Positions 19,112 through 42,100 of a stretch of 64,000 nt of DNA are shown here, piece by piece. Source of the stretch: Marsupella aquatica. Lineage: Eukaryota; Plantae; Marchantiophyta. Under the pieces are notes generated by a model. The model saw nothing but the letters and a program-made list of their open reading frames with translations, was not told the origin of the DNA and did not search any database. The translations under genes were made by a program, and so were the position numbers. Position 1 is the stretch's first letter; every line of letters starts with the position of its first letter. Where the stretch lies: positions 24,054,709 to 24,118,708 of the forward strand of contig OZ316894.1 in assembly GCA_973895155.1 (NCBI GenBank). Reading direction: 5' to 3'.

Positions 19112-19299
19112 GGTGAACAAAAACAAAAACTGAGGGCTATAGCGTTTGAAAGAAGAAAAGTTCATGGTATTGTTCAGCTTATATCTGTCAAACCTGGGAA
19201 TTTGACGTTAACCGATCCGTTTGTATACGACATAAAACATAGACGATGGAGGATCCGTTGGCACCATAAATGATTTTTGTCGTTTTTTCCCCGAGAAGT

Positions 19300-20075
19300 C
19301 CGGATGTCAGACACGAACATATTGCTAAAAAGATCACCAACCTTACTTAAACAGACCATAAGATATGACAAGGTATTGTCAAATTTTAGTAGCGCCTGGC
19401 GCTAACTAAAATACGCCACTAAAAATGTGTCTGAAATCTCGACATTCCAAACTAGCGCCCGGCGCTAGTATAGAATAAATTCCCTGAAAATGAACATTAT
19501 GACCACATACCAGGTGGTAATTGGGAATAAATGGTGCCTTCAAAGGATGGTTTTGATTGATTATGGATGATAAATAAACATTTATACTAGCGCCGGGCGC
19601 TAGTATTACATTTGAGAAATATTTCTCCGTAAACGATGTACTGAAGGATACTTTAATAAAATATGGGGGTGGAAAGGCCAAAATTTATGTCATAGCTCCT
19701 TCAAAAAAGACCTCTAAATTTCTTCCAGTTTATACTAGCGTCGGGCGCTATTATAAGCATACTCTAAATTGTTCACCTTGATGGTCATCATTAATGCTAG
19801 CGCCCGACGCTAGTATTGATATGATGTTAGGAAATGTCTTTAACGGTAACATTCAACGGTAACTTATGACTTCCGTGTGTGTTACGCATCTTCTACCGTT
19901 TGATTTTGGTAATTAAACCTTCCGTATACAGACGTTGGAAACTGCGAAACATCAGAGCTAATGGCTTTCCTCTAGGTTATGTCATCCTCCCGCTAGAATA
20001 TATTACACGTTCAGAGATGATTATAGTTCCATAATTTCATTGTACGATAGTTCGTACACTTCTAGAAGGAAGACG
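19300..20075. promoter_or_regulatory. Divergent intergenic/promoter region with 5 clustered AGCGC palindromes
   Basis: AT-rich spacer between the minus-strand MULE-like gene and the plus-strand ParB-like gene. Palindromes at 19391-19811. Confidence 0.55.
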
Positions 20076-23000
20076 ATGGAGGTATTCCCCTCTTCTTCCA
20101 GAGGGTATAGTGCGGTTCCTGACCAGGAGCGAGCTTATTCTGAATCTTTGCAGTCTTCGTTTACTGGTTCAGTCTATACACGTCGTGTAACTCGTTCCTC
20201 AAAGTTGTTGCCGCTCACTTCTGTCAGCGGTGTTTTGGGTCCAAATCCTTTGCAAAGAAAGATGGACAACGTAGACACAATTGCGATCTAGGATGTTGCG
20301 GATTGCGCGCTTGCTGAGATTGATCTCATTTCGAAACATGTCATGTCTTTTGGAAAGGATTCTCGTGGATTTGACAAGGAGCCGCCTCGAATCCCTCTAT
20401 GTCGATTGGTTCACATGGAGGTGGTTCGTACTCTGCAGAAAGACAGCTCTTCCATCGAGAAGCTGAAAGACTCTTTTCGTAGTATGGGTTACAACTCTTC
20501 GATAGGGATGCGTTTCTATGTGCAGCCAACGGATGAGAACGGAATTGTTCTGACCTGTACCCAGGACATTCGTGATTCATGGGATCCAATATGGCAATTG
20601 GAGAACGAGAAGTTTGAGGCTGAATGCGAGGCTGACCCAGATTTTCTCGTCTTGAAGGATAAGATGTTCTCTGTATTCGATGGAAATCACAGGTTGTACT
20701 CCTGGACGCTTGTAACAGAGGAGAACCCGGACAATCCAAAATATCATCCTCGTGTGCTCTGTACAATATTTAAAGGAGACAAGGGATCTCTCATTGAAAT
20801 TGAGGTAGCTATGCACACGTGAATCAGTAAGTTCTCATGATTTCCAGTTCTTTCCTTAAATCTTGCGAGTGTTGTATTTACTAGCGCTCGGCGCTGCTTA
20901 TACATGAATTGTTTTTCATTGACTCTTACTCTCAACGTTTGTTCGTGTAGGCTTGGCCAAGCAGTTGTAGAGCCTTCCTGGATCCTGGATGCGGACATAA
21001 TCAAACGAATTCTGGCGCATGACCTTGAGTATTACAATAAACTAATTGACCCGGGTAATTTCAAGAAGTTTGAAAGCATTCGGATGAAAACTCGGAAGGG
21101 GTCATAGTATACGAAGAAGATGCCACAAGAAGCACTTGTTTACATTCTTTGTGAGAATAAGATAAAGTTGTACTCGCATCAATTCAAACTCGACATGGAG
21201 GTAGCGGAGGCTCAAGGGAGTCCATGGTAGGCGGACGAGATTTCAAAACGGCATGCGGCCATGATGAAAGACGCAACCAAAGATTGGGCAGTGAAGTCTT
21301 CAAAAATTACGCCCTTATTAAGTCCTGAATTTGAAGATTTCCTTAGTACATGTGCAGAAATGTATGCTGTCACAGAGAGAAACAAGAGAGAGAAGAAGCC
21401 TGACACCGTTGTATGTACGATGGACCGCGCACGATTGTTCACCATTGTTTCTGCTCTAGACCCAAAGTTACGAAGCACTTTACTTGTGGCACATTGCAAT
21501 CCTGAGCTGCGGAGATAGTTTTTTCACCCAGCAAGTGTTAACGATGATTTAGTCAAACAGTGGTGCCACACTTGGATCACTTGGAATAGTGTGGAGGGAA
21601 TTGCTGCTGGCATGTTACATTCATGTCTACGTGAAGTTGAGCAAACCATGCCCGCGAATAGATTGGAAGAGTGGAATTGTAGTTTGTTTGATGATCTAGT
21701 TCAGTTTGTTACAAATGAATTCAAGAGATTTGGTGATTCCGTGAAGAATAAGTTCTTTCACACTATGTGGCCTTCAAAGTACCCTGACAAAGAAGATTAC
21801 ACCCAGAGAAACCAGAAGCGAGCGAAGAGGTTTGTGTATAGGTTCTACATGCACATGGAGGTAACCAAACCTGATTACTTCTGGGCATATCCTGCAGCTT
21901 TTATGAAGTGGATTTCAATAAGTGAAGATGATGCCTTGGCTGATTTGTACTCTATGTACCCCACGGAGGGCATATTTCCTCCGAGACCAATGACAGAATG
22001 GGAGAGAACTCACTGCCCCTGGTATCTAGATATAGATAGATGGGATTCTCTTTTTGATCAAAGGGAAAAAGATGCCTTCCATAAGCTTTCAAAGTCTCAG
22101 ATGCCAGCAAAACTTGTGTCCGACATGAAGCAAGGTCTACTTGACGATGTAGACAAGTCTGCCACAAACTTGCAAACTATCTGTGAAACAACTGTTGTGC
22201 ATGTGGACCGGAGTCGCAAACCTCGCGCGAAAGCCAAAGCGGAGCTAGCAGCACCGAGCGAGTCTACTAAATCTGGAAAGAAGAGTAAGTATTGCTATCC
22301 ATGATTTTGCCAGCGCCAGGCGCTGGCAAAAAATATTTTGTTGAGGGTATTCTCTTTCTTGGTTATTAGGCTTCGGTTGCGACTTAAGTGAATTGCATTT
22401 GGTTAGCGCTAGGCGCTAGCTTCTTTCAATACTTTAAAAGTACTTATTCTAACTACGACCTGGTTATATTTTAGGAGGGAGGAAGTCTAATACGGTGGGA
22501 ACGGGAGATACGAAAAAGGATGCTACACCTGAAGTTTCTGAGGCAAACACGGGAGCTCGATTAGACCCCATTACTCCAGTTGACAAAGGGAAGGTTATAG
22601 TTCCTATCGACGCCACGAGTACCAAGAAGAAACGAAAGAGAGCTGTCGAAGGTGGACAATCTTTAAGGGAGAGTTTTATAGCTTCTGGTTTCCAACGTGA
22701 AGTTGGAAACTTCAAAACAACTATGTCTCGCCATTGCATGGTTGAGACAAGCCTTTCTGAATTTTTTGACTCGATGTTCAACAAGGAGGAGAAGCCCGAG
22801 TGGGTTAGTGATGTGGAGAAATGGGGAAAAGACCTCGTTAAGTTGGGATTTAAAGAGAAGGGAGTTGTTCGGGGGGGAAAAGTAAGATCATTTGGAGTGG
22901 ATGCCGGCTTCATTTACCTACCGACCGGGTTCAAACCATCTATCATTGATAAGAAGGTTCCTAAATGGAACATTCCAGATCACTCAATGGCTAGATCTTT

Positions 23001-24159
23001 TTTCAAATCCATGGATCCATTTTTATCAGATGATGGGTTCCTTGTAATTCTACACAATGGGGAGTACGATCCCATGTCGCAAGTCATTGCTGCCTGTCAG
23101 GAGTCAAGGAAATTTCAGTGTATATGCTCGCATAATGTTGTGATGTCTGACCCGATGTATGCGGCAAAGACATACCGAGAGATGTTTACCCTCAGGCTCA
23201 ACATATTTGGCTGAATTAATGGGAAATGTAAAATTCCCAAAGACCCCAAATTTTGGCCACTGTCCATCAGTGAGGACCCTTCGGTTACCAATTTGATCGG
23301 ACTCTCTTCGCTCAAATCAGATCCATTCCCGCAAATGGAGTTTGCTGGAAATGCTCGTCTGTCTGTGGGTTTTATGCAATCTGTTATAGAGCTTGTCACA
23401 CGGCCTCGTGATATTTTTATGGATTGGACTGCTGGGGCTGGAGGCTCTTACATTGCTGACGACTTCTCTGGACGATTTGTACTCGGGATAGAACACCGGA
23501 AAGAATTTATTGAAACCGCTTCAAAGGTTTTCATGGATTTGTTGTCTCCCAAAGAGATTGCAGTGTTACCTCCACCTGTTCCTACTGCCGACAGAAAAAA
23601 AAAAGATAAGCTTTGATCGGTTCTCAATTTTGATTTTGATGATGAATCGAGTGAAGGTGGAGAGGAACAAGGTACAAGAAACTCCGAGGAGGAAAAGGGT
23701 GAGCGTCGTGCAGCTGTAGATGAAACCGATAGTGATGACTCTTCCGAGTAATGTTCATAAACTCGTAAGCTTCTTTCTCCATTCCCGTCAATTCATAACA
23801 TTTCTTTTGTTGTTTTGGGGAAAGGCACCTTACAAAATGGACTTTGTTATATCAGGTCAGAGTGGAATGCAAGGAGACAATTCAAACTGCGGAGGAAGAT
23901 CGCGAGACACAACGTAGAAATACCGGAAAAACCGTTTGTTCTTCCCTCCTATGCAGAGAAAGCCGCAAGGAAAGCAGAAAGTGCAAGGACACTTTGCTGG
24001 GAAAACAAAGGTCTTCGGTTACGAAGGGGTGTTGACCGAAAGTTCATTAAACATCCTTATGTTGATGACTTCTCCCGCAGCCAGTACGTAGATGATGAGG
24101 CTGTGTCCACGGACAGATCCCAGAGTACAGATTCTGGTTCCGACTCAGAATCTTGGTAG
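20076..24159 (+). pseudogene. Large spliced gene: ParB/Srx-like N-terminal domain + C-terminal beta-class amino-methyltransferase-like domain
   Basis: IEKLKDSFRSMGY...VFDGNHRLYSW (ParB-N signature GxHR) at 20343-20822. C-terminal FMQSVIELVTRPRDIFMDWTAGAGGS.IA..FSGRFVLGIE (SAM-binding motif I in beta order) at 23293-23616. Degenerate motif IV candidate FIYLPTG and FLSDDG.L in 22495-23214. Introns ~20827-20950 and ~22286-22474. Several premature stops. 3' end uncertain. Confidence 0.65.
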
Positions 24160-24419
24160 TTGAGGCTAAATCTTTTAGCAGCGCCCGGCGCTTGTAACAT
24201 CTGTATTATTTCCCTCTGCTGAGGGTCCTTTTAAATTGTTGATTTCTCTCTACTTGTTGATTACTTTTGACTTTTGTTCTTTACAAGCGCCTGGCGCTCG
24301 CCAAATGGAATCTCTAAATGGCCGTTTAGTCTTTGTTGTTTCCTGTCAACGGTCATCGTCATTGGATACCAACTGCCATTTGGATTGTGTTCTTTAGTCA
24401 GTCGTCGGAAAACCGTTGG

Positions 24420-24800
24420 GGACCATAGTTTCGGGACGATGATTCCATAGTTTAGGGACCGGGCGGAAGAGACGACTATAGTTTCAGTTTAGGTTTGTTC
24501 GGGATGACGAGAGTTGGGGACGTCGATAGTTGAGGACAATGATAGTTTCGAGAGGATGATAGAACGGGATGATAGAATGGGAGGGGAGACTTTGTTTCGA
24601 GATGACGATAGAACGTGACGATAGAACGGGATGATAGTTCATTTGGGAAGACTTTGTTTCAGGAAGACAATAGAACGGGACGTTAGAGTAGGGCGATAGA
24701 ACGGGACGATACCTGTTACCAAGGTGAAGATAGTTTCGGGAGGCAATAGAACGGGACGATGATAGTTTGATGGTCGTTTCGGAACGGTAGTGTACGCGAA
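24420..24800. repeat. Degenerate short tandem repeat (gatagaacgggac / gatagtttcggga)
   Basis: More than 10 imperfect copies of gatagaacggga and gatagtttcg units. Confidence 0.75.
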
Positions 24801-24973
24801 CCTTTATCTGGCGTCTTAGTCTTCGCGGACCTTTCTTTGACCTTTGTCGGCTATAGCACTCGCGGACGACGTTCTTACGGGAGGAGAGGTTACATATTAG
24901 ATCGGGATCTTTGAAACATGGCGAGTCAGTATGAGCCAATGGATTGGGAGGCAGCTTTTCGTCCTTCTCGTGT

Positions 24974-25400
24974 CACTACTACATATTGGCCCCTTTTGCA
25001 AAGCTTTTTTTTGACGTCGGGATGGTCTTGCGATGTCATCAACTTCAGATATTTTGTGATCAAACACGCATCACAATAAACCATGCTCACAGGTTCGTAA
25101 CATGGTGTTGCGAAGCTAAATACCTTGCAATTTGTTTGAGATCGGATTGAATTTGCAACTCTTTCAGATACTATTTGTCTCGCAAAGTATTTGTGGATCC
25201 GCGATCATCGCGACTGCATTTGGATCTCTTTTGTTTCATAATTTAGCGATAATAATGTACTCAAATATATATTGTGAACCTATTAGCTTCGCACAATATT
25301 GTGAAGCATAAATAGTCGCAAGTTACCGAATCCAGTTGATTCGCAAAGTTGAGAACACATTGGCATCACAATTACCGATGGTGTGTTATTCACAAAGTGT
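24974..25400 (+). mobile_element. CACTA-like terminus (CACTACTACA) with ttgcga/tcgcaa subterminal repeats
   Basis: CACTACTACAT at 24974 followed by many (t)tgcga/tcgca(a) motifs in both orientations. Partner end not confirmed. Confidence 0.5.
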
Positions 25401-25728
25401 TCAGAAGTTGCTTCTTGACAAGCTTGAAAATGCTTTGCAAAGAGAGTTGTTTGAAAATTTTGTAGAATGGAAATGTTTGAGAGAGTTTCTTTACAAGATG
25501 GAGAATGCATGTGTTTAGGTTACAGCTAGGGTTTTCAAAAAGGTGGCATGCATGAGGATAGCTTTGGAAACGGCTAAGGTTGCATATATAACAGTGAGAT
25601 GAAATTTCAAAGTCCAATTAAGTGTTTGTAAAACAAAAGAAGAAAAGTAATATGTTAATATAAATAAAACCATGATAGTTAGTTTAGGGTCAAATTCTGG
25701 GCCCACAACAAGTTTTACTACTAGTGCA

Positions 25729-28700
25729 TCAAACCTGGTCCTCATCCTCGCCTCCATTTGACACAATAATAACGTCAGGTTTTTCCGAGATAATGGAACG
25801 GGACCGTGGCACATACGGTATAACAATTGACCACTCTAGGTCTGGTGGGTACGGAATATAGAAACACTGCTCAAGGTGACTTGGGAATGTAAATGGTTCA
25901 GATGTTTGCCAATGAGATGGTTGAAAGCTAGTTGCTGATGTCTTCAGTCGAGTAAACCCACACTCATCAAGAAGTACCGTGCGATTATCACCAACCAGGT
26001 GAATTTTGAACCACTTACACTTGAAGATATACTCTTCAAATTTGGAATCGGCATCATAGGATATGATCAAGATCTCCTCAATCTTCCCATAGTGAGGCAC
26101 CACATCTCTGATCACATTAGTGTCATGACGGCTACTTTGTGAATCTTGCATGAACTGCCCTTGAACTCCACAATCAAAAGTTCTTCCCCTCTTCTCATCA
26201 AGGTCAGAAATCCTGAAATGCCTCCCTTGTGTCCACATTGCTGTTCTGGTTTGAACAAGTCTTAAAGGACCATGAACAATTGTTCGAACCTCAGGAGTCA
26301 TATCTGGAAAATGTGATACATTCTCACCTTGGGCCACCATAGCATCCAATTGAAGTACTTTCTCCTTCATATACTCAAGGAACTTTGGAAAGATCCTTGG
26401 GCGACGACTCTCCCTCTTTGCATCCTCATAAAACTCTCTCCAATCTTCCATCACATTGTTGTTACTCAACATGAAAGTACTAACCTGTGTCAACTCCACT
26501 GCGGTTAGTAAGCGTGTTTTTTTTGCACCTGTTAAACGGTCCTCCTCCACTTCCCTCTCTTCCATCCAAGTGCGTGGAAAACTAGGATCAATGGTAGCTA
26601 AGATGTTACTACAATAAAACATACTCTCAGCTGCCAAGTATCCAGTTGCCATGCTCCCCTCCACTCGTGCACGGTTCCGTACATAAGCCTTTAACACGGC
26701 CATATACCTTTCCAGCCAATACATCCACCTACAATGCACCGGACCGGCAATGGCAACCTCCCTCACAAGATGAACGAGAAGATGCACCTGACAATCAAAG
26801 AAGGAAGGAGGGAGGGCCTTCTCCAACTTGCATACCACCTCTGCTGCCAATACCTCCATCCGTGGTATCTCTTCTTCATATATTTCCTTTGAGCATATCC
26901 ATCTCAACAAAGTGCCCAGTGACCAAAGGGCGTCTTGCACTTCTTCACTCCCCAAACCTATGATTGCCACAGGAAGTATATGTTGTAGTAAACGATGATA
27001 GTCATGTGTCTTGAGATACATTGGCCATTTATGACTGTCCTCCATCCCAAAAGCCTTACGTAGATTGGCACCATAGCCTGTAGGAAACCGCATCTGCCCT
27101 ATGCGTTGTCGAAACTCTCTTCTTTCACCAACACTCAAAACCCATGGAGCTGAAGGACGATGTTCCATCCCTGTGGATTCATCAACTATTATCCATACAT
27201 CTGGATGTCGTTCTAGATCCTGGCATGCCTCCCTAAAATTAATGTTCTTTTCCCCATAAAAGTGCTTGATCAAAGCCTTCCCAACATTTCCCTCTATATG
27301 CATGGGGTCTAACAAGTGATGAATCTTCAACTCAGACCAATAGGGCAAAGTGGCCAGTATACCCCACCTTGTCAATCCACTACCATCAAATCCCATGGCA
27401 TCTTCAGGGTCTGCCACCCTATCAGCTATGGACTTCCAATACGAAAATGTGGTGCGGTCAGGTATCTCACGCTCATCACCATTGATCATGTCAAAGTCTG
27501 AAAACAAAAGGGGGTCAGACCTCATGTGATGCCCAAGTGGAAGAAACTTGGTATGACCAAGGTAGATTATCTTGTGCAGCCATTTTGAGTACTTGGCCAT
27601 ATCGTGAAGGCTTGGACCACAAAGTGGAGCATGCCTTGTACCCTTGAGTTTGGAACCCAGAAACAAACCCAAACCCTGCTCACAAAATAACATTCTCAAT
27701 TAGAGTCAAAGGAATTGAAAAGTTCATGTACATAGAATTAAAGAGGGACTTCCTTCCAAACAAACTTGATCTCCAATACATGAAAAAAATACAAATCCAT
27801 ACCACTCACCTGGATAGTCATGCATGGTCCACATAATGATTCCCTTCAATTGGAAGACACGTGGTAACCCTCCTGTAGTTGTCCGATCATCATATGCCCA
27901 TACACCCCCCCATAATTTATGGAGTTCCCCAACCAAGAGCGCCAAGTAGGTGTCCATGTTTTTTACCTTAGATGGACCTGGGATAATCAATGATAGCAAT
28001 AAGAATCCCTTTTTCATGGACAACCATGGGGGAAGGTTGTAATTCATAACAACCACCGGCCAAACCGAAGTAGGGCGCCCTTTCCCTCCAAGGGAGTGTG
28101 GGCTTACCCCATCTGATGCCAACCCCAACCTCACATGACGAGGGTCACGTGCAAATTCTGGCCATTGTGACTCCACATGCTTGTGAGCAGGGGAATCAAC
28201 TGGCAACCGCATGACACCGGCCTCTAATCGATGTGTCTTATGCCATACCATCAATTCTGCCAAGTCAGAACATCGGTACATGTGCAACAATCGAGGAATA
28301 ATAGGAAACCAACGAACAGCTTTTCTAGGCACCTTTGAGGTCAACATGTTGGTTTCATATCGAGGCTCTTGACAAATTGGACACTCAGTTGCGTTGGCAT
28401 TGGTCTCATGATAGAGAATGCAGTCATTCACACAAGCATGAATGATATGGTATTCCATGCCAATGGATGATAGAACCCTCTTTGCCTCCTTCCAAGTTCC
28501 TGGCAACACATTTTCACTAGGTAACAAGAGATCATGGCAAATTGCAAACAAATCCGATAGTAGCGCATTGCTTGCCTTGTGTTTTGCCTGAAGATTCATC
28601 AATGCCAAGATGGCAGATAGTCTATTCAAACGAGCACCCCCATAAATAGGTGTTCTAGCATGTGCCTCAGCTTCTTCCCATTGTTTTTGTCCTTCAGGTG

Positions 28701-28999
28701 TACGTTGAGGCCTTGGATCATGTGCAACATTTGGTGGAGGGTCTCCTTCATTGGGTGGGACACCTCCTTCACCACCAATGTCTACACCAAACCAATCTGT
28801 CATGAAGTCATCCATGGCTGACTCTTGGTCTTGCATGACCTCATAATCTGTCCGAGGTGCCCCTTCATCTGGACTGTCATTATCATTGTCACTTGATGAG
28901 GAATCTGCTGATGATGTTTCCCCGTCTTGTGGCAAGCCCATTTCTTGATATGTAGCTCTCAACCTCCTTGGCAACATATCTTGACTAGGCCGCACATTC
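25729..28999 (-). pseudogene. EnSpm/CACTA Tnp2-type transposase (Transposase_21 + DUF4218 + DUF4216-like)
   Basis: IHACVNDCILY, CPICQEPRY, WFPIIPRL, RHVRLGLASDG, YNLPPW, HDYPG, LDPMHIEGN, KTHDYH, PPSFFD..VHLLVHL, WMY.LERYM.VLK.YVRNRARVEGS, YGKIEEI, FKCKWF. Intron ~27677-27808 and an apparent frameshift just after it. Confidence 0.93.
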
Positions 29000-29148
29000 T
29001 ATAGAAAATACAATAAAGTATTCACAATGAAATTAACGCCAAATATAGTAGTGCTCGAAACATATTATTAACAATATAAAAAGAACATATCATTACAAAA
29101 CATACGTTCACATACGATGAACGTATAATACATGTCCCTAAAGTAATC

Positions 29149-29965
29149 CTAATCCCATTCATAATGTGTAAACAACTCCTCTCCAACCAGAATGGTCCTA
29201 TTAGCTACAACTAGACAATGGTCATGATGATATCTCTGCCCATAAGGGGCTGGAGGGGGACCATCAACAAAAACCCATTCATAGTTTTTCCTACGCTTAG
29301 GCCGGGTCCCCACAGTACTGTTGATGAAACCGGCAATATTCCCACTACGGATGGGATCACCATCAATTATACGCTGGTCACAATACTTTCTGGTGCAACC
29401 ATCAAAAGTATCCATGTCCAATGCATAAGTCTTCCACTCAGGGTGTTGAACAAGGATCATGTTCCAATGTCTCCTCTTGTAAATGGGTCCACCATACGGG
29501 AACAACGTTGGTCCATCTGAAGAGCGCCCTTTTCCACCCATATCATCCACAATAATGTCCTGACAAGAGAAAATCCCATACCCATGCCTCTCCCCTAGGG
29601 TCGAACTCTTGACAACCCAACGTCTTCCCCAAACTTCTATCTCCTCACCATAGGTTATATCACATGGCAAACCAAGGCACTCCGGATTCCAATCCTTTAT
29701 GATAGGAACACACTTCCCTGTGAAGGTACAAGGGCCCCATCTACCATCAACCCTACAAGTGTACTGATCCACTTCCCCTCTAGGCTGTCTTTTTGACTTT
29801 TTTTTCCCTCTTGTAACAATACCGCCACCCTTAATTGTCCCAACACTACCTTGCCCTGCTGCCACTAAACGAAAAGCTTGTGAAAGTGCCGAGCCTATAG
29901 CATCTAGAACTCCTTGTGAGGGAACATAGGGTGTTGGTGTAGTGGGTGTAGGCCTACTGGATACC
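29149..29965 (-). CDS. SET-domain (lysine methyltransferase-like) exon carried in the CACTA transcription unit
   Basis: Open frame with VKSS...HGYGIFSCQDI, FPYGG, IDG...GNIAGFINS...N, VVANRTILVGEELFTHY: the SET signature motifs. Acceptor AG at ~29966. Confidence 0.8.
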
Positions 29966-30075
29966 TATAGGAAGAAATGGAACCAAGTGAGTGTGATGAA
30001 CCTCCCAAATTTTATTTTATGCTACCTAGCAAGATTTACAAAATAAAATGGAAATCACAGTAAGTTTACAACTCA

Positions 30076-30310
30076 CCATACGGGATGAAGAAGCTCCCGG
30101 TGTAAGACCTCGATGTTGGCCATATCGAGCAATGTGCTCCGCACATACATATGACTTTTGGACAACCATCCCCACACTTTTTTTACAACCACAAAGTTGG
30201 CGTGGTGGACCACTAGGTCGACGTACGGTTGGTTCAGGTTGAGGAGGAGGATGACTTTCTTCATCGGAAGAGGAATCTGATGTGGTGGAAGTTGTAGAGG
30301 ATGAAGACAT
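30076..30310 (-). CDS. Putative shared first exon of the CACTA unit (Ser/acidic tract + C-x-C...H motif)
   Basis: MSSSSTTS...QLCGCKK...CAEHIARYG, ending in a GTGAG donor at ~30075. Resembles the transposase-associated domain N-terminal to Tnp2. Confidence 0.55.
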
Positions 30311-31619
30311 CTGACAAGTATAGCAATTGGAAGGCAATTAGTAAAAACTTCACCAAAACCATCATTGATAATCCCTACCTAAATATATTAAAAAGAATTG
30401 ACAGAAAAATACCTTTATGAGACCCGGGCTTAGCAATGCCTTGACGATTTTGTGGGAGGGAATGGATCTTGACTATGTTGTCTGGGTTTGGACGCATCTT
30501 GTCTCCAAGAAATGACTAGTTTTCTAGTTAGTTTTTGGCTAGCGCCGAGCGCTATTCATGTATTAGTCGAAAACCTCCGACGGTGTCGACCGTGACTTCA
30601 TGGATGGGATTTTTAGGCCAGATTGTTGATGTTGATAACTGCATTTTGTATCACTTAAGCCGAGCGCGTTTTCTATTTTGCGATAATATATGCGAATGTT
30701 TTTTCCGGCCTTTCTTTTCTACTTGTATTTGTCTTGGATTTTGTGTATCTCAATTGGCAGCCATCTTTTATGTTTCAAAAAATTGTTTCCGTGTTGTTCT
30801 TTTATTTATCACGAGGGTTTGGTGGTTTTGTTTTCTATTCTTGTACTTTCAAATGGAGATTTTGAGACCTTTTTTTAAGATCACTTTTCACGACCATCCA
30901 AACACTGTTCACTGGTAACAGCTACCAGTGAACAGTTTCCTGTTACTATTACCAGTGAACAGTTTCCTGTTACTGTTATCTGTTTGCTGTCGTTTGTAAA
31001 TTCCCCCTTCAAATGCACTCACACTTAATGGTCACAATGAAGATTGGTCACAATGAAGATTGACAAGGTGCATTGCAAGATTGAGGACTACCAAAGCAGG
31101 CAAAAAGTCTCAAGTCCTTTCACTAATCCAAAGGACTATCAACGGCCAAGATTAGCACATCTAAAGTCAAAAAGGACTTAAACAAATCAAATGCGTATAA
31201 GATGCATTCATTAGTATTTCAGCTCCCGAGGTAACCCCTTTCTTGTCGCAACTATAATTTATGAGTGAAGGACAACCGGTTCTCTAGGAGAGTGCTGGTG
31301 CTATTAGTTCTGCGTGGAGGACTTTTCAAAAACAAGGAGTCAAAGTCCTTTGGGGAAACTCATTTTTTGTCCCGACATATAATTTACAGTTGGACAACTA
31401 GTTCTGTGGGAGAATGTCGTCGGCGCTACTAGTTTCGCAGGGAATTTTCAAAATCTAGGAGTGAGAGTCCTTCTCACTTAGGCGCGAGCTACAATTTGTT
31501 CAGAAAGTATCGAAGCCGAGCGCAAGGGTCCATACTTAGCCTCGTGAAGCACAAGATGGATGCCTCTGTGAGAATTCATTCAAGAGCAGTCGTGCAATGA
31601 TGTGAGATTCAAGATGTTC

Positions 31620-32560
31620 TAATTTGTGTTGCCTTCAAAGCATGGGGAATGAGCTCATGCAAAAAGGAGGGTAGGGTTTACTTGTTCAAGCGCGCTCTGC
31701 CAAACAGCCAATCAAGCTGCAGATTTAATTTGCGTCTGAAGCTTTGCGGATGACATTCAAATCCGAGCATGAGCAAGGGGAATAAGCGCAAAAGGAGGGC
31801 AATGAAGCTGCAAGTTTTATTAGGGTCTGAAGCATTGCTGATGATGACGGGAACTTCGGGAAAGAGTGCGAAGGAGGTCTGAAGAGGATCAAAGGGTTGA
31901 ACATTGACTCAAATCACTCACTAGCAGCCATCATCGGCAGAATTGAGGTAAATATATGCCTCAATGCTTTTGTTTTCGAAGAGGAGATTTTCTTTGCACT
32001 GAAGAAGCAAGGACGTTGGACAGAGTATGTGATGATTGACAGAATCAAAGTAGCTTAAATTTTGAAAGGCTTTGTTTGTTAACAAGAGTTCAAGTTGCGT
32101 TAAAGTCTGGAATGACCAACAGTGGCCTTTAAAATACCTAGCCTTGTGGAACGCAAAATAGGTAGCAACTCTGGAAAGTTCTATGATTGGGTTAAATTGA
32201 TTGAAAGAGCAAGATCCATGGTGTGATGTGAGATCCATGCTCTGATAAATCCGTGTTGCCTTCAGAGCATGGGGAATGAGTGCAAAAAGGAGGTTCAATG
32301 AAGCTGCAAATTTATTAGGGTCTGAATTAAGCTTTGCTGCCGACGTACATTAATTTGAATCCGAATAGGAACTTCAAGAAAGAGCATGGAGAGGAAGGTC
32401 AAGCAGCCAATCAAATCAGTATTGGCAGCTATCGTGAACAGAATTGAGGTACATTAAATTAAATTGATTTGCTTTTGTTTTGAAGAGGAGAAGTTGCTTT
32501 GGACTGGAGAAGCAAGGACACTAGCTAGACAGAGTATTTGATGATCGACACAATTTAGGG
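31620..32560. repeat. Imperfect direct duplication upstream of the Sola2-like gene
   Basis: Blocks tgttgccttca.agcatggggaatgag, aatgaagctgcaa..tattagggtctgaa, gaattgaggta and gaagcaaggac recur at ~31625-32040 and ~32250-32550. Confidence 0.65.
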
Positions 32561-33170
32561 AGTTCCCAGTTGAAAGGCTTTTCTTAGGGCTTTTCTTTTT
32601 CAAGAGGAGAAGTTGCATTGGACTCGATCAGGAAGGGTAGCAAGTCTAGAGATTAAATGTGATGATTTTGTGAGGTATGTTCTAAGTCATGAATTGAAAT
32701 TGGATCCCTGGGACGTAGGTGAATTTTATTCTATGAGGGTGGGCGGCCTTTGATTGGTAAAGGAAGTTGAACACCCCAACGTATTTGATGCTCCATGATT
32801 AGGCTGAAATGGCTACTCTTAATCAGGTATCCGATGCCCTAGCAAGAGAGAGGTTGGAGAAGCGAAGGTTGGCAAATCGCAAATCCAAGTTGAAAAGACA
32901 AGAGCAAATAGCAAACGGTCAGCACATAGGTGGTCAACAGGCAGTTGATGAAATGATTCATGAAACACAACAACAGTGCAATCTCATGATGGAGAGTGCT
33001 AAGCAGCAATGTCAAGATTTAGTGATTGATGGCAACCAAAGGCAAAGAGAGTTATTGGCTGCTGGGCAATCAGAGGCAATGAGAATTACTAGTGAGGCTC
33101 ATGAAGCTGCCGCTGTGATGTTGCGTACAGCCCGGGAAGAAAGTGAAAATCTCAAGGAGGCTACGCATTC

Positions 33171-33835
33171 CCCTGGGCCCCCAGCCTTTGTAAACTAAAG
33201 AGGTATACGTGCGTACACCCCCCTCCTTAGTACCCCTTATTATTTTTGGAAGCCTATACAAATTTCTCTTGTTATTCTTAAAAACTTAATTTTGGAGAAT
33301 AAATCTGCCCCTTTGAGATATTATAATTTCACATTTTACACCATTTATGAAAGCCTTGAAAAGTTATAAATTCATCATTTGCACACGGTTCTAAAACTGA
33401 CGGGAGTGTTTTGGAAGGGTTTTGGGTACATACATTTTTGTGTTCGTGACCCTTTAACCCCAAACTTCAACTTTGGGGCATTTTTGAACCACACGGCAGG
33501 GTAGTCAGGGTTCAAAAGCTCCAAAGTCCTAAACTACTCTGAATCATAGATATTGCAAGCATAATTATATGTCATATACACATGTTCCAATAAAGGGTGG
33601 CCACAAGGACCAATCCTATTGTGACGCATGTCACATCCATATTACATCACCTCTTGAAGCATATTAACTTGGGCAACATTTATATAAGCCTATATTAGTT
33701 AGAAAGGGTTCTTTGAATAAAACCATCCCTTGATATTTCTAAGCCAATTATAAAAATTAATCTCAAATCAGATTTTTTGCACCCTTCATCCGTTCGCACG
33801 TCCAACCCATTATTAATAATGCTGGGGGCCCAGGG
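33171..33835. mobile_element. 665-bp non-autonomous TIR element (MITE) with 8-bp TSD
   Basis: Perfect 15-bp TIR CCCTGGGCCCCCAGC. TSD ACGCATTC at 33163-33170 and 33836-33843. Removal restores the host frame. Confidence 0.93.
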
Positions 33836-35747
33836 ACGCATTCATACCATTTTGAGATTTTAGAGTCTAGGCGGAGGACCCTAAGGGCAAGCATTCCAAC
33901 ATAGGTCAACGCCCACATTCGAATGCCAAGGCAGAGCACCCAAACTGCTTGCACTCAAGTGCATGCAGCCCACCTTCATCCACTAAATAAAGGTGAGCAC
34001 GATAATTGTGGTTGTGATGACCAATTGCAGGAAGATTCCATTCTTGAGAAGAGGAGGAAGGATGCAGACAGGAAGAGATTTGAGTACCAAAGGAGCAAGC
34101 GCTCTGTTCCAGAAGACGGTGTAACTCCCAACCAAAAGAGAAGGTGCATTACAATTGTGTTATCAGATATAGTTAGGTACATTTTGGAGAAGACCGCTAC
34201 ATTCAATGTAGGTGCAAGGAGGGCAGTACTATCTGGTATCTGGTTGCACAAATACTTGAAGAAGTACCAGCCTACAAGACTAGGTTTGCCTAAAATGGAT
34301 TGGGCTGTAGCTGCTGCATTATAACACGATTTCGGACCGACCGAGAAGTGTGTCGGAGTTCTCGTTTAGCCCGATCCCATTTTTTTTCTAAGGCAATGCA
34401 ATGACCGATAAAACTGGCAAAAACTCTCCAAAATGCCACTTTCCTCCATTGCATCGCCGCGGGAATGTAGGGAGCGATACGTGCATCGGGTTTTACATTC
34501 CATCAGTGAAAAAGTCCAAACTACGAGGTCCAAACCGCATAATCCAGGAACGACCACGCACTAACCCAGGTAAAGGGGAAACTTAACCATGGTTAAGGGG
34601 AAATTAACCATGGTTTAGAGCGTCTCCTATATAAAGAGGAGCGGGCTGCCCATAAAACGTTTGCTTTCGCCAGAGCAAATATCTCTTGACTGAGAGCGAA
34701 TACCAAACTCCCATCGAGTCTTACATTCCTCCCAAGCGATTCGACTCTTTCTACCGAAAACCCGATAAATTTATCGGAACAACCATTCCTGTTCAAGTTC
34801 TCCATGTAAGACTAACTAGTCATTTAGTGTAAAATGTCCAGATCTGAACGGACTACGATAAATTTATCGCATTCTGCATTCCTCTGTTGCAATCATTTGA
34901 TCCAGTGTTTAGAGAGGTGTTGCCTTCATTCCGATAAATTTATCGGAGTCTTCATTCCTTTCATGGAAAGAGGAGTAATTGAGAATCCGATAAATTTATC
35001 GGAGTTATCATTTTTGTGAAAGATTGAATTCAGGGCTTAGGTGTCTGAGGAAGTCATATTTTCAATTCGAATGCGGAGTGCGATAAACTTATCGCATCCT
35101 CCTGTGAGAATCATTTTCCTTTGTTTTGTTTGGAGACTCATCTTCATCTCTGATGTCACAGTGTTGCCGGGTTTAGGAGGCACAACGGAAGGTCGATTGC
35201 ACTCCGTGGACAACAGGTATTGTGACAAATGGCTGTCTTCCATGTATTGTCAAACATGCATGCCGGTTGTACAAGAGACTTGTGCGACTCAAAGTTCTCC
35301 CCATCGGTATAGGAGCATTGTGGATGGGTGGTACTGATCCTGGAGATAGGCAGAATCCTCTCCGCATTGAATTTATGGAATGAATGATGCAGGAGTTCCA
35401 ATTCGTTCGAGGTTGATGTTAACGGCGTGTTTACATTCTTTGGAGTTTTCTTGTAACTATTGTTGTCGTCGTCTTGACAACAAGTACCACAAATAGGCTC
35501 ACTTCTGTTGTAAGATTTGGAACGAAGACCCTTGGGTGAACCTTTCACGATGAGTGTTTTGACCTTTGCATTGAGGCGCGTCTTGTAAGGACATATTTAA
35601 ATAAACAAGTCCTACCCTTGCGCAGCGAATATAATACGTCACGAGTCCTAATCGTTAAACTGTCGTGCAGGGTTGGTATTGTGGATGTGTTCGGTTACAC
35701 CTGGTGATTGAAGGTATTTTTATTGGTGGTTTTGGTAGCTCTGCTTC

Positions 35748-36290
35748 ATGGCTGCGTCGGAGAATCTAATCGTTGCAAAGATGGGATCCGTTTTAGCCCA
35801 CGAGCGTAGGAAATATATTCGAGGAAAAGTGCTCGGTGTGGAATGTGGAACTTTGTTGAATGGACTTCCCGATCAACTCATTGAATCTCACATTTGGCCC
35901 CTCCTAGCCTTGTCTTGCACACAAGATGAACACCTTGGCCTTGACCTAAAACTTCTACCAGAAGAACGACTGACTCGAATGAGAACAATCATTTGTCTTG
36001 GAGCCACCTCAAAGAAATGGAACCATCTTGTTGTTGGTACACGATTTTGGGCGCTATTGAAATATGCAGTCCATGAGATCAATGACATAAACAAAATGCT
36101 TGCAAGCATTCCTAATGCCGACCTTCTCTCAAACATACATATTGCTAGGGTCTTCCAAGAGGAAACTCATTTCCTCCCTCCCATAGATATGCTTGGGTGC
36201 TTTTTGTATGAGCAGTTAGATCAGTTTCGTAGAGTTTGGATAAATCTTGGAGAAAGTGGGAAGCAGACAATTCTTGCATGGCATGGATGA
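35748..36290 (+). CDS. F-box-like protein (cargo of the Sola1-like element)
   Basis: Intact 180-aa ATG ORF with LNGLPDQLIESHIWPLL ... LGATSKKWNHLV, matching the two ends of the F-box signature with an insertion between them. Confidence 0.55.
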   Translation: MAASENLIVAKMGSVLAHERRKYIRGKVLGVECGTLLNGLPDQLIESHIWPLLALSCTQDEHLGLDLKLLPEERLTRMRTIICLGATSKKWNHLVVGTRFWALLKYAVHEINDINKMLASIPNADLLSNIHIARVFQEETHFLPPIDMLGCFLYEQLDQFRRVWINLGESGKQTILAWHG

Positions 36291-36859
36291 GTCTGAGTGG
36301 ATGAGGCATTGCTGTGAACATCCGATAAATTTATCGCACTCCTCATTCCTCTAGTCGATTTTGGGTGCTCTAAGGTTTGCTCAAGAAGAGCTTGTAAAGA
36401 AACACTTTGAATGTAATTGACTCTGCCTCCCCTGACTTCGGGTGGTGTGGTCCAGAGTGTATTTGTTTGCGCCTCTTTGGACGATTAGCTGACAAGTGCA
36501 TTGGCTTCACAGCCCGTTATACAAGGTACTGTAAAGTTGGATGAAACTTGTAGAATTGTAATTAGTATGTTCTCCAAAATTTATTCCTGATTTCTATTCG
36601 GTGATCAGACCATGCTCGAGCGACGCATTTTTGTACCCTACTTGGATCCTCCAGAATGGGGGAATGGAGCCATGCTGGACCAGCTAAGAAGGCTGGATGA
36701 GTCACTAATTTTAAAGATATGCAGGCTGGTAGTAAAACCATAATGCATTTCACTTCTACGTAGATCAGGTACGGGGAGAAATTTATATTTGGTGGGATAG
36801 ATATGTTGGATTTTCTAGAAGAGTTATCCTACTCTTTCTGAAAACCGGTGTAGTAAGAC

Positions 36860-38805
36860 ATTTTATACTCGACTGCTGTCATGTTGTGAAGAGCAATCCT
36901 GCTTATGATCCAGAATTCTATGCCGACAATAGACGTAGAGCATTCGATGAGATTCAGGATGTGATTGACGAGCTGGACAATCCTCTTGCCACCGAGTTTT
37001 TTATTGACACTGGTGGGAAACTATATTCATACAAGATTCGTCAACTCCCCCCCAGCCGGTCTGTGCGCTCTTTAACTTGATCTATGTAAGTTGCCTGTGG
37101 ACGAACGTCCTTGCCAATGGTGAGATCTGTCCATGCTGCACAAATGCTTGTTGTGACATTCCGTCCGCCAAGGTGAAGAAACTATTTTTGCAGATATCTG
37201 GTCAGCCAGATTGGGCAACATGCAGAGAAATGTTTCCCAACGAAACAGATGTCTCGGTCCTTGGCATATGGGCGGAGAAATTGAGTGACGCGGTAAGCAT
37301 TCCTCTCACAACATGCTCTATCGCGAGATTTTTATCAGCTTTAGCATTCCTTTGTTGGTTTCTAAGCGATTGCATCTATCAGCTAGCGTGCTCCATCGCA
37401 AGATTTTTATCGGCTTTAGCATTCCTTTGTTGGTTTCTAAGCGATTGCATCTATCAGCTAGCGTGCTCCATCGCAAGATTTTTATCGGCTTTAGCATTCC
37501 TTTGTTGGTTTCTAAGCGATTGCATCTATCAGCTAGCGTGCTCCATCGCGAGATTTTTATCAGCTTTAGCATTCCTTTGTTGGTTTCTAAGCGATTGCAT
37601 CTATCGGCTAGCGTGCTCCATCGCGAGATTTTTATCGGCTTTAGCATTCATCTCACGCTATTCTAACTGTAGATGTGTCTGACATTTTTACAGCTGAAGA
37701 TTAATTTAAAAAGGAAAAGCAAAGTGGTTCCGGCTGTCACTTATAATTCTGCGGGGGAGGTTATTTTTCCCTCAGCTGAAATCCCTTATGTGTTTAAGAA
37801 TTTTGTGCTTGCTGCAATCGATAAGTACAATCGGCTGAGGTCCTTAGGCGAGGGCACAGCAGAAGCGTTTGAACAAACATGGAAAAATGCAGACGGGGAT
37901 TCTTTTCCCTACTATCTCCATGTTGGTGATGTTCGAATTTTGGATTCTTTTGTTCAGCCAAGGGCTTACACCCTTGTGGTTGCGGATATTCCGTATGGTT
38001 TTAATGCTCCTGGTTCGGAGTTTGATGAAGTGGCCTTCACAGAAAAGGACATTTTAGACATGTTGACAAGTTTCTCAAAGATGACGACCGCTAAGTAGTG
38101 GAGGTTTGTTGTGATCCATTCACTACAACAAACGCATATGGTGATGTCTGCATTGGACAGTGTATGCAACTGTGGGTCGAGGCTGGAATCTGGGAGAAGA
38201 CTAACATTCATGAGCGTCCCGCTGGAGCTCGATTGGCGTGGGGTTTTGAGAACTGGTCGATAGGTTTCTATAGCGAGGAAGGCATTCGGAACATGGACAT
38301 GTACAATTTCCAACCGGATGAGTCTCACGTCAATATCATCAAGGTTCCATGTGTAACCAAGAAGTCCGTTGATCCGTTGGGATTTGTTGTGAACCCGTAT
38401 CAGAAGCCTGTTGGTTTGGGGGCTTGGTTTGTTTCCCATTTTTTTGAGAAAGAGGATTGGGTTATTGATCTTTGTTGTGGAACCAGATTGACATTAGCTG
38501 CTACGCTCCTCAATTCTTGCCAGGGTTGTGCTGTTGATAAGAGTTCTACGCAGATTGATTTTGTGAAATCCCGGATCATGATTCTGGAGTCAAACTGGAA
38601 TTTATATGAAGAATCCCAAATTGAAGGGCACGGCATTGAAGGTCATGAGATTCAACCACCAATTGCAGGCCAATTGGGTGTTCTCGGGACATCGACTTAC
38701 ATAGTTGAGGTCGTGAAGGAGACCGAAGAGGAACAAGAAGAAACTAAGGAAGAGCCTCCCAGAACACCAAATGAGGATGATCTCAACGACATGTTATTAG
38801 ATTAG
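36860..38805 (+). pseudogene. Beta-class N6A/N4C DNA methyltransferase-like gene (cargo of the Sola1-like element)
   Basis: GDV..LD, LVVADIPYG (motif IV, DPPY-like), IWEK.N...FE.W.IG, NPYQKPVGL, WVIDLCCGT..T.AA...G.AVD (motif I): beta-class order. Introns ~37086-37192 and ~37292-37693. One stop (38096-38098) and a frameshift. 5' end uncertain. Confidence 0.8.
37314..37650. repeat. 75-bp tandem repeat x ~4.5 inside the MTase intron
   Basis: Unit gctccatcgcaagatttttatcggctttagcattcctttgttggtttctaagcgattgcatctatcagctagcgt. Each unit carries a cg/caagatttttatcg variant of the element palindrome. Confidence 0.95.
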
Positions 38806-39139
38806 TTGCGTGTGCTCGTTAGGATAATGTCAATCACCAATGGAGTTGTCGATAAATTTATCGGATTCTGTATTCCATGAGGAAGAACCTTGGTCACCTT
38901 TATTAATGCAATAAATTTATTGGACTTTGCATATATCAGACTGTCGCGGTGTTCTAGCTGGGGAATGGAGTTGTCGATAATCTTATCGGACTTAGCATTG
39001 TATGCTCTAATTGGTTTGTCATTGCAATTATTTCAAAAAAAAAGATATCATTATAGCTGCGAAGTACATAGTCCCAGAACGATAACCACTATACATATTC
39101 ATGGGAACGATAACCATTATAACTTAAACCTGCAACTAG

Positions 39140-42100
39140 CTTCGACTATCAACGACTACAGTCTCCATTGCATTTTGAATGATTCGTCTTGTTTGTATAG
39201 GGAGAGTACTATTTGCCAATAACACAAAGTTATACGCATAAATGGCAGTTCTGCTAGGGACAATTCATCCTCCAGTACTTTTTTAGACGAAGCCTCTTTC
39301 TCCGGATAATATCTGCCTTCAATTGCAGACTCTTCCTCCAAATCCATTGCATACCAAGTGATTTTAATCCGCTCCGGGATGTCGTTAATTCTTGTGAGAA
39401 TCTCAGTCACTTTTGCCATCCAGAATGGTCTTCCCTTGGGATCCTGATGGGCTGCTACACATATCATTGCAAATTTAGTATTCACCTCTAGATCCTTGAG
39501 GTCTCCAATTTCCGTGACTTTTCTTCCACTTCCGGAATACATGACAGTCCTCACACCCGCTACTTTATCAACCAAGCTAGGTTCCATTGCTGCTTTTGTA
39601 GGATTACTCAGAAGTTCTCTCTGTACGTTTACCTTGGGCCAACTCCAATCAAAACTCCATTGTGCAGGTTTCAGGTGGTGCTGAATCGCTTCTTTTTGTT
39701 TGTCAAAAAAACGACCCCACCATAGATGATCTTTGTCGTCAAAGTAATTGAATCCATCTTCAATTGCTCTTCGATATTTTTGAAGAGTTGACAAATAACT
39801 TTGAGCCGCCCGCTCATCTTGTTCCTCAGCATCATTCTCTTGCTCTTCATTGTCTCCTGTCGCTCCCGTGGCCGACTTCAATGCCATTTGTGGTGCGACC
39901 CACATTCCAGATGATGGAATGTACCGAACAAAATCCCCCGTCTCCCCCCAATCGGTTGTCGTTGAAAGATGTTTGGCATGGAATACGGACCGAGCACTTC
40001 CATCTTCGAGTACTCTAGTAATCCAAAATTGTTTTTGAGCACTTATGTCGTGGAGAGTACGTAGAACCTGACCATCCATATCCTTGTCATTTGCTTGATC
40101 CTTGTCTGACACAAATTTCTTGAAATCGGCAACCTCGTCGACAAAAAATATCTTTGCCATAGGATTGTAGGATTCCTCTATGATTGCTGAAAGAGTGTCC
40201 AACCGGAAAGCTTTCCGCTTGTTCAATTTTGAAGAAAACTTGCTAAACATTTGATCAATTTGATCATGGGTGTGCCCCACCAATAGGAAACCAACCTTTA
40301 TTTTCTGGAAAACACCTATCTCCACCAACATATTCAAATATGCCATAAGATATTTATTCTTGTTTTCCCGAGCTTTGTTATCAGGCTAGAAGTAAAGCAC
40401 TGGAGGGAGCAGACCTTCCCAGGTATTCAAAATATGCTGGATAATGTGGATGGTCAGGTTGCTATCATTGTGAATATTTGGATAGTTCAAAAAAACATTT
40501 GAACTTAATTGTTTGTTGAAGATCAAACAACCCACTACGTGTACGGTGATGAAATACTTTTCATCCATATTCTTCAGACACCGAATGAAATGAGGTAACT
40601 CTATCTTCTTTTGATCCATTCCATCAATACAGATGCCCAAATATTTCTCCGGACTCTTGTAACATTTCATCCGGTGCTTTGCTAACTTCTCCCTCTCGAC
40701 TGCTTGTGCCTTCCGATGCTCGTTTAGCAATGTTGAGAATTTTCCTACAATAATAAAAATGTTTAGGACAAAACATGATAATAGCAATGTTGAACCCTGA
40801 CAGCGATAAATTTATCGGGTTCAGTATTCAAATACGAGACCGTAATGATAAACCCTGACAACGATAAATTTATCGGGTTCAGTATTCAAACACAAGACCG
40901 TAATGAAAAACTGTGACAGCGATAAATTTATCAAGTTCAGTATTCAAACTATTCAAACGATATATTCACTCACATGGCCAAAGAAGAAGCACATGAATAC
41001 TCAACCCGATAAAATTATCGGGAGTAACACACAGGTTTAGAAACTTACTCTTTTCTGCTTCGAGTGTTGCCTTATCACAGAGTGCTTTGAATTCAGTACA
41101 CGGGGTGCAGGTGGAGAAACGGCTCCTTTTGGGGATGCGCACGCGAGGAAACTCCTTGTTCCAAATGCGAACAAACCACGAATATGTCATGCCTTGTTCT
41201 TGGCGCATTAGAGTTTTGGACTGGAAGGCATCAAAAACTTCTGTTTTTGTCCAATTGTCAGGTAAATGAAAGATATCCTTGTTGGGGAGACTCTCGACAT
41301 TTGTGGAAAAAAAATCATCCAACCATTGGACGAGACCAAGATATGCGGGTGATTTTTCTCGACAAACTGTACCGATCTGTATCCGAGAAAACATGTTCTG
41401 CGAGATTTTTTGGAGACGATTATATCCTAGTGAAAATAATTTCTTAAAACCACTCCAACAAAAGGATCTACCGCTAACTGAGTAACCACTTGCACCAACA
41501 TGCCCACCCTTCACCCATCCTCTTAGAAGGACGTTCTTCTCTGGGTAGGATAGCCCATAGTAATAAGTGCGTTGTTTCGTCACGGCTAGCAGACCCAAAT
41601 TTCTCAGACAATAATTATCACAACACAAATACTTATGAATTTCTCTCATTTTATTTCTATTCAATTTGTCATTTATCACATTGTCTTTCCTCAGTAATTC
41701 GGTCCCTATCTTTTTTACTAGGCTCATTTGACTTCTCTACAGCCTGAAATCCGTTCATAACATTGGCATTTTTGGGTCCTTCAGGTGCCTCGCGAATAGA
41801 TGCATCACTCTCTACTGAGCTACCATCCTCTATAGATCTCCTTGACGCATTTAGAGGGGCACTGAATAGACGACTATAACTATTCTCTTGAATCGATAGC
41901 TCCTTCTAAACATTCAGACACAACTTGTGCTATTATATCGGATTCTCTATCTCCTTCCTCATCTTCGTCCTCCGATGCACTCGACTCATCTGAAAACACA
42001 ATTGGACTCCGTGGCTCTCTATGCATAACCTGAACGCCACTAAGACCTCTCCTCAATACTTGGAGCCTGGAACCAATGATAGTCCGCCCTTGAGAACTTG

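Follow-up and report, generated by a model that had tools for sequence, protein, structure and literature searches.

We analysed a stretch of 64,000 nucleotides (nt) of Marsupella aquatica DNA (contig OZ316894.1, positions 24,054,709 to 24,118,708; hereafter the window), which carries a transposase gene of the CACTA type on its minus strand. Our reading, to which we give a probability of roughly 0.6, is that this gene contains a conserved, stop-terminated cassette exon encoding a SET-fold domain, and that its first exon is spliced either to this SET exon or to the exon that opens the Tnp2 transposase. The exon layout, the phases at the junctions, the SET fold, the conservation of the layout and the purifying selection on the exon are direct observations. 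The gene is read on the minus strand throughout, and all its coordinates are window positions.

Exon 1 (30310-30077, (-)) comprises 234 nt, or 78 codons, from an ATG at 30310-30308 to a phase-0 end, and encodes a Ser-rich segment followed by a zinc-finger-like motif (CxCxxC...H) and the C-terminal end ...GASSSRM. Its GT donor (30076-30075, context tatg/gtgagt) begins a GT...AG intron of 112 nt (30076-29965, (-)), whose acceptor AG (29966-29965, context cctatag/gtatcc) opens the SET exon (29964-29149, (-)). The SET exon consists of 271 uninterrupted codons (29964-29152) and a TAG (29151-29149), with the core of the domain at about residues 100-271. It is followed by a spacer of 150 nt (29148-28999, (-); 73% A+T) ending in a second acceptor AG (29000-28999, context ttctatag/aatgtg), which opens a 424-codon frame (28998-27727). 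The Tnp2 exon (28998-27810, (-)) starts with the codons N-V-R-P-S-Q-D and a conserved Met, encodes the N-terminal half of Transposase_21, and ends at a donor (ccag/gtgagt). A GT...AG intron of 134 nt (27809-27676, (-)) follows, across which the frame reads HDYPG/FGFVSG..., matching HDYPGYGHVSG in the Riccia gene model P0098. The last transposase exon (27675-25729, (-)) holds the rest of Tnp2, DUF4218, DUF4216 and the stop, as well as an extra base at 27621, and is 60-77% identical to related loci in the correct frame.

Exon 1 is phase-compatible with both the SET exon and the Tnp2 exon, as all three junctions are in phase 0. An earlier note on this DNA had placed a SET exon between the first exon and the Tnp2 exon of a CACTA transposase; its donor, its two acceptors and its SET stop were all right within two bases, and the placement was borne out, with phase 0 toward either exon. 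The assignment to a CACTA-type transposase agrees with the Pfam matches of the frame 28998-27727 to Transposase_21/Tnp2 (PF02992, E 7.3e-39) and of the frame 27699-25732 to DUF4218 (E 3.3e-34) and DUF4216 (E 4.6e-6).

According to profile comparisons and a structural model, the middle exon is a divergent SET-fold domain. A word-seeded search with the exon recovered 41 homologues (best E 5.5e-126), and the frame, as judged from such matches, is far beyond chance. A profile search of the family, covering 1.84 billion cluster representatives, gave 133 matches at E <= 1e-3, 85 at E <= 1e-10 and 45 at E <= 1e-30. In a Pfam scan of 42 relatives, 16 reached the SET threshold, 9 were sub-threshold and 17 had no match at E <= 0.01. 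A phmmer search with the single window exon found no match among the PDB sequences. The profile built from 52 family sequences matched PDB entries, the best being the LegAS4 pair (E 6.5e-7, over the whole domain), followed by matches to the C-terminal motif of EZH2, MLL, SET8 and ASH1L. An AlphaFold (AF2) model of residues 85-271, computed from the 52-row alignment, had a predicted local distance difference test score (pLDDT) of 91.7 and a predicted template modelling score (pTM) of 0.86; a model computed from a shallow alignment of 22 close relatives (pLDDT 41.9) was not used. A Foldseek search with the former returned at least 500 matches in the PDB, 293 of them at E <= 0.001. The matches listed were SET lysine methyltransferases only (SET8, LegAS4, MLL1-3, ATXR5, G9a/EHMT1, SUV39H2, Clr4 and EZH2), with a probability of 1.00, E down to 1.2e-7, a template modelling (TM) score of about 0.5 and an identity of 13-23%. 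The SET fold is thus common to the window exon model and to the structures of SET8/KMT5A, Legionella LegAS4, MLL1 and ATXR5, but at this identity and TM score, with insertions and no flanking pre-SET or post-SET segments, a substrate is not assignable from the matches.

The motifs of the domain are largely preserved across the family. In the 52 sequences, which reach down to 21% identity, the GxG motif (G-Y-G), two Asn residues, one of them that of the NH motif, and the G-E-x4-Y motif are invariant or at least 90% conserved, and the window exon ends its C-terminal motif (G-E-E-L-F-T-H-Y) with a Tyr at the catalytic position. The corresponding motifs of SET methyltransferases are GxG, NH(x)C and ELxxxY, the last with the catalytic Tyr, and of NH(x)C the family keeps the Asn. 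The call of a SET domain in the earlier note was therefore upheld at the level of the family, through the 16 passing relatives, the PDB profile match, the model confidence and the Foldseek matches. The hidden Markov model comparison that it had proposed left the window copy sub-threshold, while the family profile matched solved SET domains.

The same arrangement was found in relatives. The named homologues of the SET exon come from bryophytes, namely Calypogeia fissa (the best, with 66% identity), five Sphagnum species and Riccia sorocarpa; one Ginkgo protein was a borderline match in the profile search (E 3.6e-4). Gene models P0001 (Calypogeia fissa) and P0003 (Sphagnum jensenii) join an exon-1 homologue to the SET exon (...GASSSRM/VSSRP...), and in the Riccia sorocarpa models P0098, P0119, P0126 and P0177 SET sequence lies N-terminal to Tnp2. 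Divergent liverwort families, in clusters below 50% identity, also carry SET together with Tnp2. A scan of metagenome contigs provided 34 SET loci with flanks, with SET exons close to the named Sphagnum proteins (Sphagnum-like). Exon 1 was present upstream of SET in all 18 related loci that had more than 450 nt of upstream room. Where more than 260 nt remained past the SET match (24 loci), 20 loci showed a complete SET end and, after it, the Tnp2 exon. The distance from the SET end to Tnp2 was 137-150 nt in 19 of these; the twentieth (L014) has lost the stop and reads into Tnp2. The other four (L022, L026, L029 and L030) are fragments, in which the SET match breaks at residue 182-235 with no Tnp2 after it.

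The signals that delimit the exons are conserved as well. In complete copies, the SET stop comes directly after YEW or YGW plus one residue. The equivalent of intron 1 measures about 115 nt, with a GT donor in all 16 loci assessed and a SET acceptor aatag/G in 14 of 16, and the Tnp2 acceptor catag/AAT is kept in 18 of 19 related loci. In the seven related loci in which the spacer was examined, it retained a length of 142-150 nt and an A+T content of 71-73%. The earlier note had asked whether sister copies hold the SET segment, and these counts answer that they do, with exon 1 upstream and Tnp2 downstream. Comparison of the loci thus indicates that the SET exon is not a chance capture and that the layout recurs across bryophyte relatives. 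Judged from their sequences, the Sphagnum-like relatives are true CACTA elements: their 5' ends begin with CACTACAACAACAGGGGG at four distinct insertion sites, about 3.3 kb upstream of exon 1, with a sharp edge of homology. Several related genomes carry the family in large numbers of copies.

The ratio of nonsynonymous to synonymous divergence (dN/dS) was computed among copies by the Nei-Gojobori method with our own script, the ratios being rough as dS is near saturation. Between the window and 12 Sphagnum-like copies, the SET exon had a dN of 0.28-0.31, a dS of 1.2-1.8 and a dN/dS of 0.17-0.25; for subfamily L003 against the others the ratio was 0.40-0.53. The Tnp2 exon, compared between the window and three loci, gave a dN/dS of 0.15-0.16 at a dS of about 1.28. 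The dN/dS comparison among copies that the earlier note had called for thus yielded about 0.2 for SET, close to the value of the transposase, and by these ratios the SET exon is under purifying selection. The equal depth of divergence and equal constraint of SET and transposase fit a descent of the two as one unit. Within the young subfamily, the median dN/dS of the SET exon was 0.83 (55 pairs), a ratio that is as expected if copies decay after insertion.

The reading frames further suggest that exon 1 serves both products. The first in-frame ATG of the window SET exon is codon 142, downstream of the GxG motif; only the start in exon 1 would therefore yield a complete SET protein. On the transposase side, the codons that follow the AG of the Tnp2 exon are conserved between the window and 19 related loci (N-[VI]-R-P-S-[QE]-D, NVRPSQD versus NIRPSED), whereas non-coding DNA is not alignable and blastn similarity to related loci was confined to window positions 25500-30250. 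These codons are therefore translated and require a phase-0 coding exon upstream, which must be exon 1 because the SET exon ends in a stop. Exon 1 was also compared by hhalign with the N-termini of 88 angiosperm Tnp2 proteins, many of which have precomputed matches to PF13963 (Transposase-associated domain), and it aligned over 36 columns with a probability of 85.5% and an E of 5.7e-6. The nearest long proteins to the window transposase are the Tnp2 transposases of Riccia and angiosperms. As exon 1 resembles ordinary Tnp2 N-termini, the finger joined to the transposase is therefore the ancestral state, and the SET exon was inserted between them.

The best placed of the alternatives is that the locus holds two separate genes, one encoding the finger and SET and ending in the spacer, the other a transposase transcribed from its own promoter and started at the Met of MLPRRL, so that exon 1 is never joined to it. 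This Met, at codon 8 of the Tnp2 exon, would indeed allow a transposase free of exon 1; the window, 19 related loci and Riccia P0177 all retain it, and the SET exon has its own conserved stop. However, the seven codons that precede the Met, starting from the AG, are conserved next to non-coding DNA that is not alignable, the phases of exon 1 and of the Tnp2 exon match, exon 1 resembles the zinc-finger N-terminus of ordinary Tnp2 transposases, and the spacer between the two supposed genes is only 150 nt long. We consider two separate genes unlikely.

Under the cassette-exon reading, splicing of exon 1 to the SET exon would give a predicted protein of 349 residues with a zinc finger and a SET domain, and splicing past the SET exon to the Tnp2 exons would give the transposase. 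The spacer would act as the 3' untranslated region of the SET messenger RNA, with a poly(A) site, or as the end of a long intron when the SET exon is skipped. The SET protein would act on chromatin proteins on the element or close by, adding methyl groups to their lysines; the N-terminal finger that it shares with the transposase would guide it to the DNA or partners that the transposase uses, and the resulting mark would favour the element, for instance by countering host silencing. Our confidence differs between these steps. Both splice forms probably arise from one promoter. We are less confident, by degrees that fall between this first step and the last, that the SET messenger RNA ends in the AT-rich spacer of 150 nt, that the SET protein may be an active lysine methyltransferase, and that the shared finger may direct it to the DNA or partners of the transposase. 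That the chromatin mark would favour the element is a tentative suggestion and rather doubtful.

Several observations weigh against the reading of a single gene with two products. The window SET exon scored 20.5 bits against Pfam PF00856 (E 6.5e-4), under the gathering score of 22.4. Seven of 12 full-length related SET exons hold one or two stop codons, and other related SET loci are frameshifted and appear as two high-scoring segment pairs. In a run-on transcript that retains the SET exon, further exon junctions would follow the SET stop. The spacer, in the window and in the related loci examined, showed no conserved poly(A) hexamer. Among the contigs of four organisms, which are not RNA, neither the joint 30076>29965 nor the joint 30076>28999 was found. 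Finally, a pair scan, a pattern scan and a listing of terminal motifs did not reveal the CACTA termini of the window copy, and, with neither end located, no target-site duplication was found. The contigs of the same four organisms also contained no clean copy lacking SET; the joints 28819>29191 and 28977>29191 were each seen in a single contig, with unknown letters between.

The activity of the SET protein was weighed separately. The SET exon has Ser in place of the His of canonical NHxC, and Val or Thr in place of its Cys (INSTV), and the protein ends three residues past the Tyr at the catalytic position, without a post-SET region. Because of these two features activity is not assured, and they speak for a catalytically dead SET protein that would act as a regulator sharing the transposase finger, for instance in competing with or repressing transposition or in binding histone tails. 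In other elements, a short product that shares the transposase N-terminus regulates transposition, as do the P-element repressors. However, the GxG motif, the two Asn and the catalytic-position Tyr vary little or not at all down to 21% identity, and LegAS4, the solved SET domain that stands nearest by profile, likewise lacks the His of the NH motif (INFS, with Phe) and was crystallised with a histone H3 peptide according to the title of the structure. An inactive regulator is thus quite improbable in our estimate, and methyltransferase activity of the SET protein is plausible.

A further alternative is a fusion of SET and transposase of the SETMAR type, produced by a donor inside the SET exon. 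Models P0027 (Sphagnum), P0098, P0126 and P0177 (Riccia) do join a partial SET to Tnp2, but they cut SET before its catalytic C-terminus and at differing junctions, the corresponding window codons (AAC TAT GAA TGG) contain no GT, and the copies keep their stop after YEW. The SET query recovered no protein of more than 475 residues, which is weak evidence. In the window, SET and transposase do not share one open reading frame (ORF), as the TAG at 29151-29149 separates them. We regard the SET-Tnp2 fusions in gene models as prediction artefacts or as specific to single lineages, and a fusion in the window element as very unlikely. Transduplication, in which a fragment of a host gene is passively captured and does nothing for the element, would agree with the habit of CACTA elements of picking up such fragments and with the decay of many SET exon copies. 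It is highly improbable, given that copies separated by dS > 1 agree in the position, phase, stop and splice sites of the exon, that its dN/dS of about 0.2 equals that of the transposase, and that divergent liverwort families (clusters below 50% identity) have SET together with Tnp2.

The copy in the window has itself suffered damage. A 1-bp insertion in a run of T (27623-27621, (-)) frameshifts the transposase inside the conserved ...GYKAC... segment; the extra base is absent from contigs of other copies (X1, depth 620 of 620; X2, 29248 of 37206; X3, 54772 of 72863; X5, 15.5 of 15.5). In exon 1, the third Cys of the finger is changed to Ser (codon 30178-30176, (-)), a change private to the window copy, as all contigs of X1, X3 and X5 that cover 30178 read the Cys codon (TGT). 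From these two changes, the window copy is probably non-autonomous. The earlier note had contrasted the intact SET frame with the frameshifted transposase. Both halves of this statement are true, but the contrast weighs little, as it depends on one extra base in one copy and since related SET exons decay too (7 of 12 with stops). Elsewhere in the last transposase exon, four related loci (L010, L011, L013 and L024) have an extra gap of about 145 nt, likely an intron, near residue 180; the window frame is continuous at that site, pointing to loss or gain of an intron within the family.

The ends of the window copy were sought in several ways. The CACTA/TAGTG pair scan of the window gave chance-level pairs only, the Sphagnum-like terminus pattern had 7 matches in the window versus 5.3 expected, and the listing of CACTAC/GTAGTG contained no matching pair, with a candidate left end at 24974 lacking a partner. 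A loose end at 31048 and the joints 19752>30447 and 30556>30446, the latter holding 12 letters between, were considered as element ends and rejected as variation in repeat units. The repeat unit upstream of the gene (30446-30556, (-)) holds the palindrome AGCGCCGAGCGCT at 30541 and occurs as a tandem duplication in other copies. On its 5' side, the window copy may be truncated or interrupted near 31.1 kb, at the start of a different repeat family. Arrays of AAGGACT/AGTCCTT lie at 44445-45440 (20-nt spacing, about 48 copies in 1 kb), with smaller groups at 31113-31466 and 61994-62346; they resemble the subterminal regions of yet another element, by which the CACTA copy may be interrupted on its 5' side.

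A 13-base palindrome, AGCGCCNGGCGCT, occurs with small variants in 14 copies, all within 15241-30541 and none in the other 48.7 kb of the window. One copy precedes exon 1 by 230 nt, and a group of five is found at 19391-19799. The palindromes may be binding sites or subterminal repeats of the element family; in the Sphagnum-like family, the candidate subterminal repeat is TTGCGAT..ATCRCAA.

Convergent with the transposase gene, the ORF 22453-23613 (+), which has an in-frame TGA at 23212-23214, shows a weak likeness to the S-adenosylmethionine-binding (motif I) end of beta-class N6/N4 DNA methyltransferases. It matched Pfam PF01555 at E 0.0065 (16.9 bits, threshold 26.7) and DpnA in the PDB (5hek) at E 0.0014 with the stop read as X, and Atlas feature matches to PF01555 clusters scored 0.85, which is a lead only. 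No DPPY-type motif was seen in this ORF, and it had no match in the 34 related loci. The flanking ORFs 15363-18961 (-) and 20292-24156 (+) matched no Pfam family at threshold, and among the 34 loci they had a match only in L022, in the opposite orientation.

Window positions 16000-35000 are repeat DNA throughout, and contigs of several organisms cover nearly all of this region at very high word depth; in organism C, identity of at least 90% is confined to 24.9-31.2 kb. Pieces of a PIF1-type helicase ORF (12253-13608, (-); PF05970, E 4e-51; Pif1 2B domain, E 1.2e-20) are present, as in Helitron-like elements. A pair of 35-nt inverted repeats (34320-34354 and 43718-43752, 83% complementary) encloses an ORF with DUF7869 (39159-40385, (-); E 6.2e-31), the motif CGATAAATTTATCG in many copies and, at 37239-37688, a 75-nt tandem repeat; 34320-43752 is probably another DNA transposon.

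Transposons with chromatin enzymes of their own are rare, and very few cases reveal an element acting on the silencing machinery of its host. The VANDAL anti-silencing protein and fungal elements bearing TET/JBP are named as such cases in two reports (PMC12730594; bioRxiv 10.1101/2025.02.11.637652). A candidate enzyme that is built into a transposase gene and shares its N-terminal finger would offer a simple and testable way to aim a histone mark at the element. The high copy number, together with a dN/dS of about 0.2 over synonymous saturation, makes this family a tractable system for asking whether a transposon writes chromatin, in plants whose silencing of transposons differs from that of flowering plants. 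In its widest form, the idea would be that an old CACTA lineage of mosses, liverworts and the host of the window encodes an active histone lysine methyltransferase, aimed by the finger at its own DNA and writing its own mark to escape or tune host silencing, possibly with the neighbouring gene that resembles a DNA methylase, much as in the Plavaka elements of red algae; we regard this as an unlikely, though conceivable, extension.

Among known systems, maize En/Spm provides a precedent within the superfamily for two products by alternative splicing, as Masson, Strem and Fedoroff reportedly found in 1991 that TnpA and TnpD arise in this way from one transcription unit. Like the window element, in which the splicing is predicted, En/Spm belongs to the Tnp2 superfamily and has a first exon common to two alternative downstream coding parts. 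Unlike in En/Spm, the second product in the window is a SET-fold protein and not TnpA, and it is encoded upstream and not downstream of the transposase exons.

The window locus also recalls SETMAR/Metnase of primates, a host gene in which a pre-existing SET gene was fused to a captured mariner transposase to encode one protein. Both loci combine SET and transposase, but the window SET exon ends in a conserved stop and lies inside a multi-copy mobile element.

SET genes borne by transposons are on record in HarbingerS elements and Helitrons (PMC12730594; bioRxiv 10.1101/2025.02.11.637652). As far as the available passages describe them, HarbingerS elements resemble the window element in being a family of DNA transposons with a SET gene as conserved cargo, and differ in belonging to the PIF/Harbinger superfamily and in having SET as a separate gene, a comparison made by description only. 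Closer in superfamily are the Plavaka elements (EnSpm/CACTA), whose PAG2 gene in the red alga Bostrychia moritziana is described as combining a PF01555 DNA methylase with a PF00856 SET domain (bioRxiv 10.1101/2025.02.11.637652). On that description, Plavaka and the window element share the CACTA superfamily and SET as accessory coding sequence, and the window also has the weak PF01555-like ORF adjoining the transposase gene, an observation that recalls the DNA methylase and SET accessory gene of the red-algal elements. Compared by description only, PAG2 differs in being a separate accessory gene with a fused DNA methylase, whereas the window SET is a probable cassette exon that shares the first exon of the transposase, and its hosts are land plants. 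Transposon-borne SET genes are thus already known. Full-text literature searches, with Repbase Reports and supplements outside their scope, turned up no account of a SET exon within a CACTA element of a land plant.

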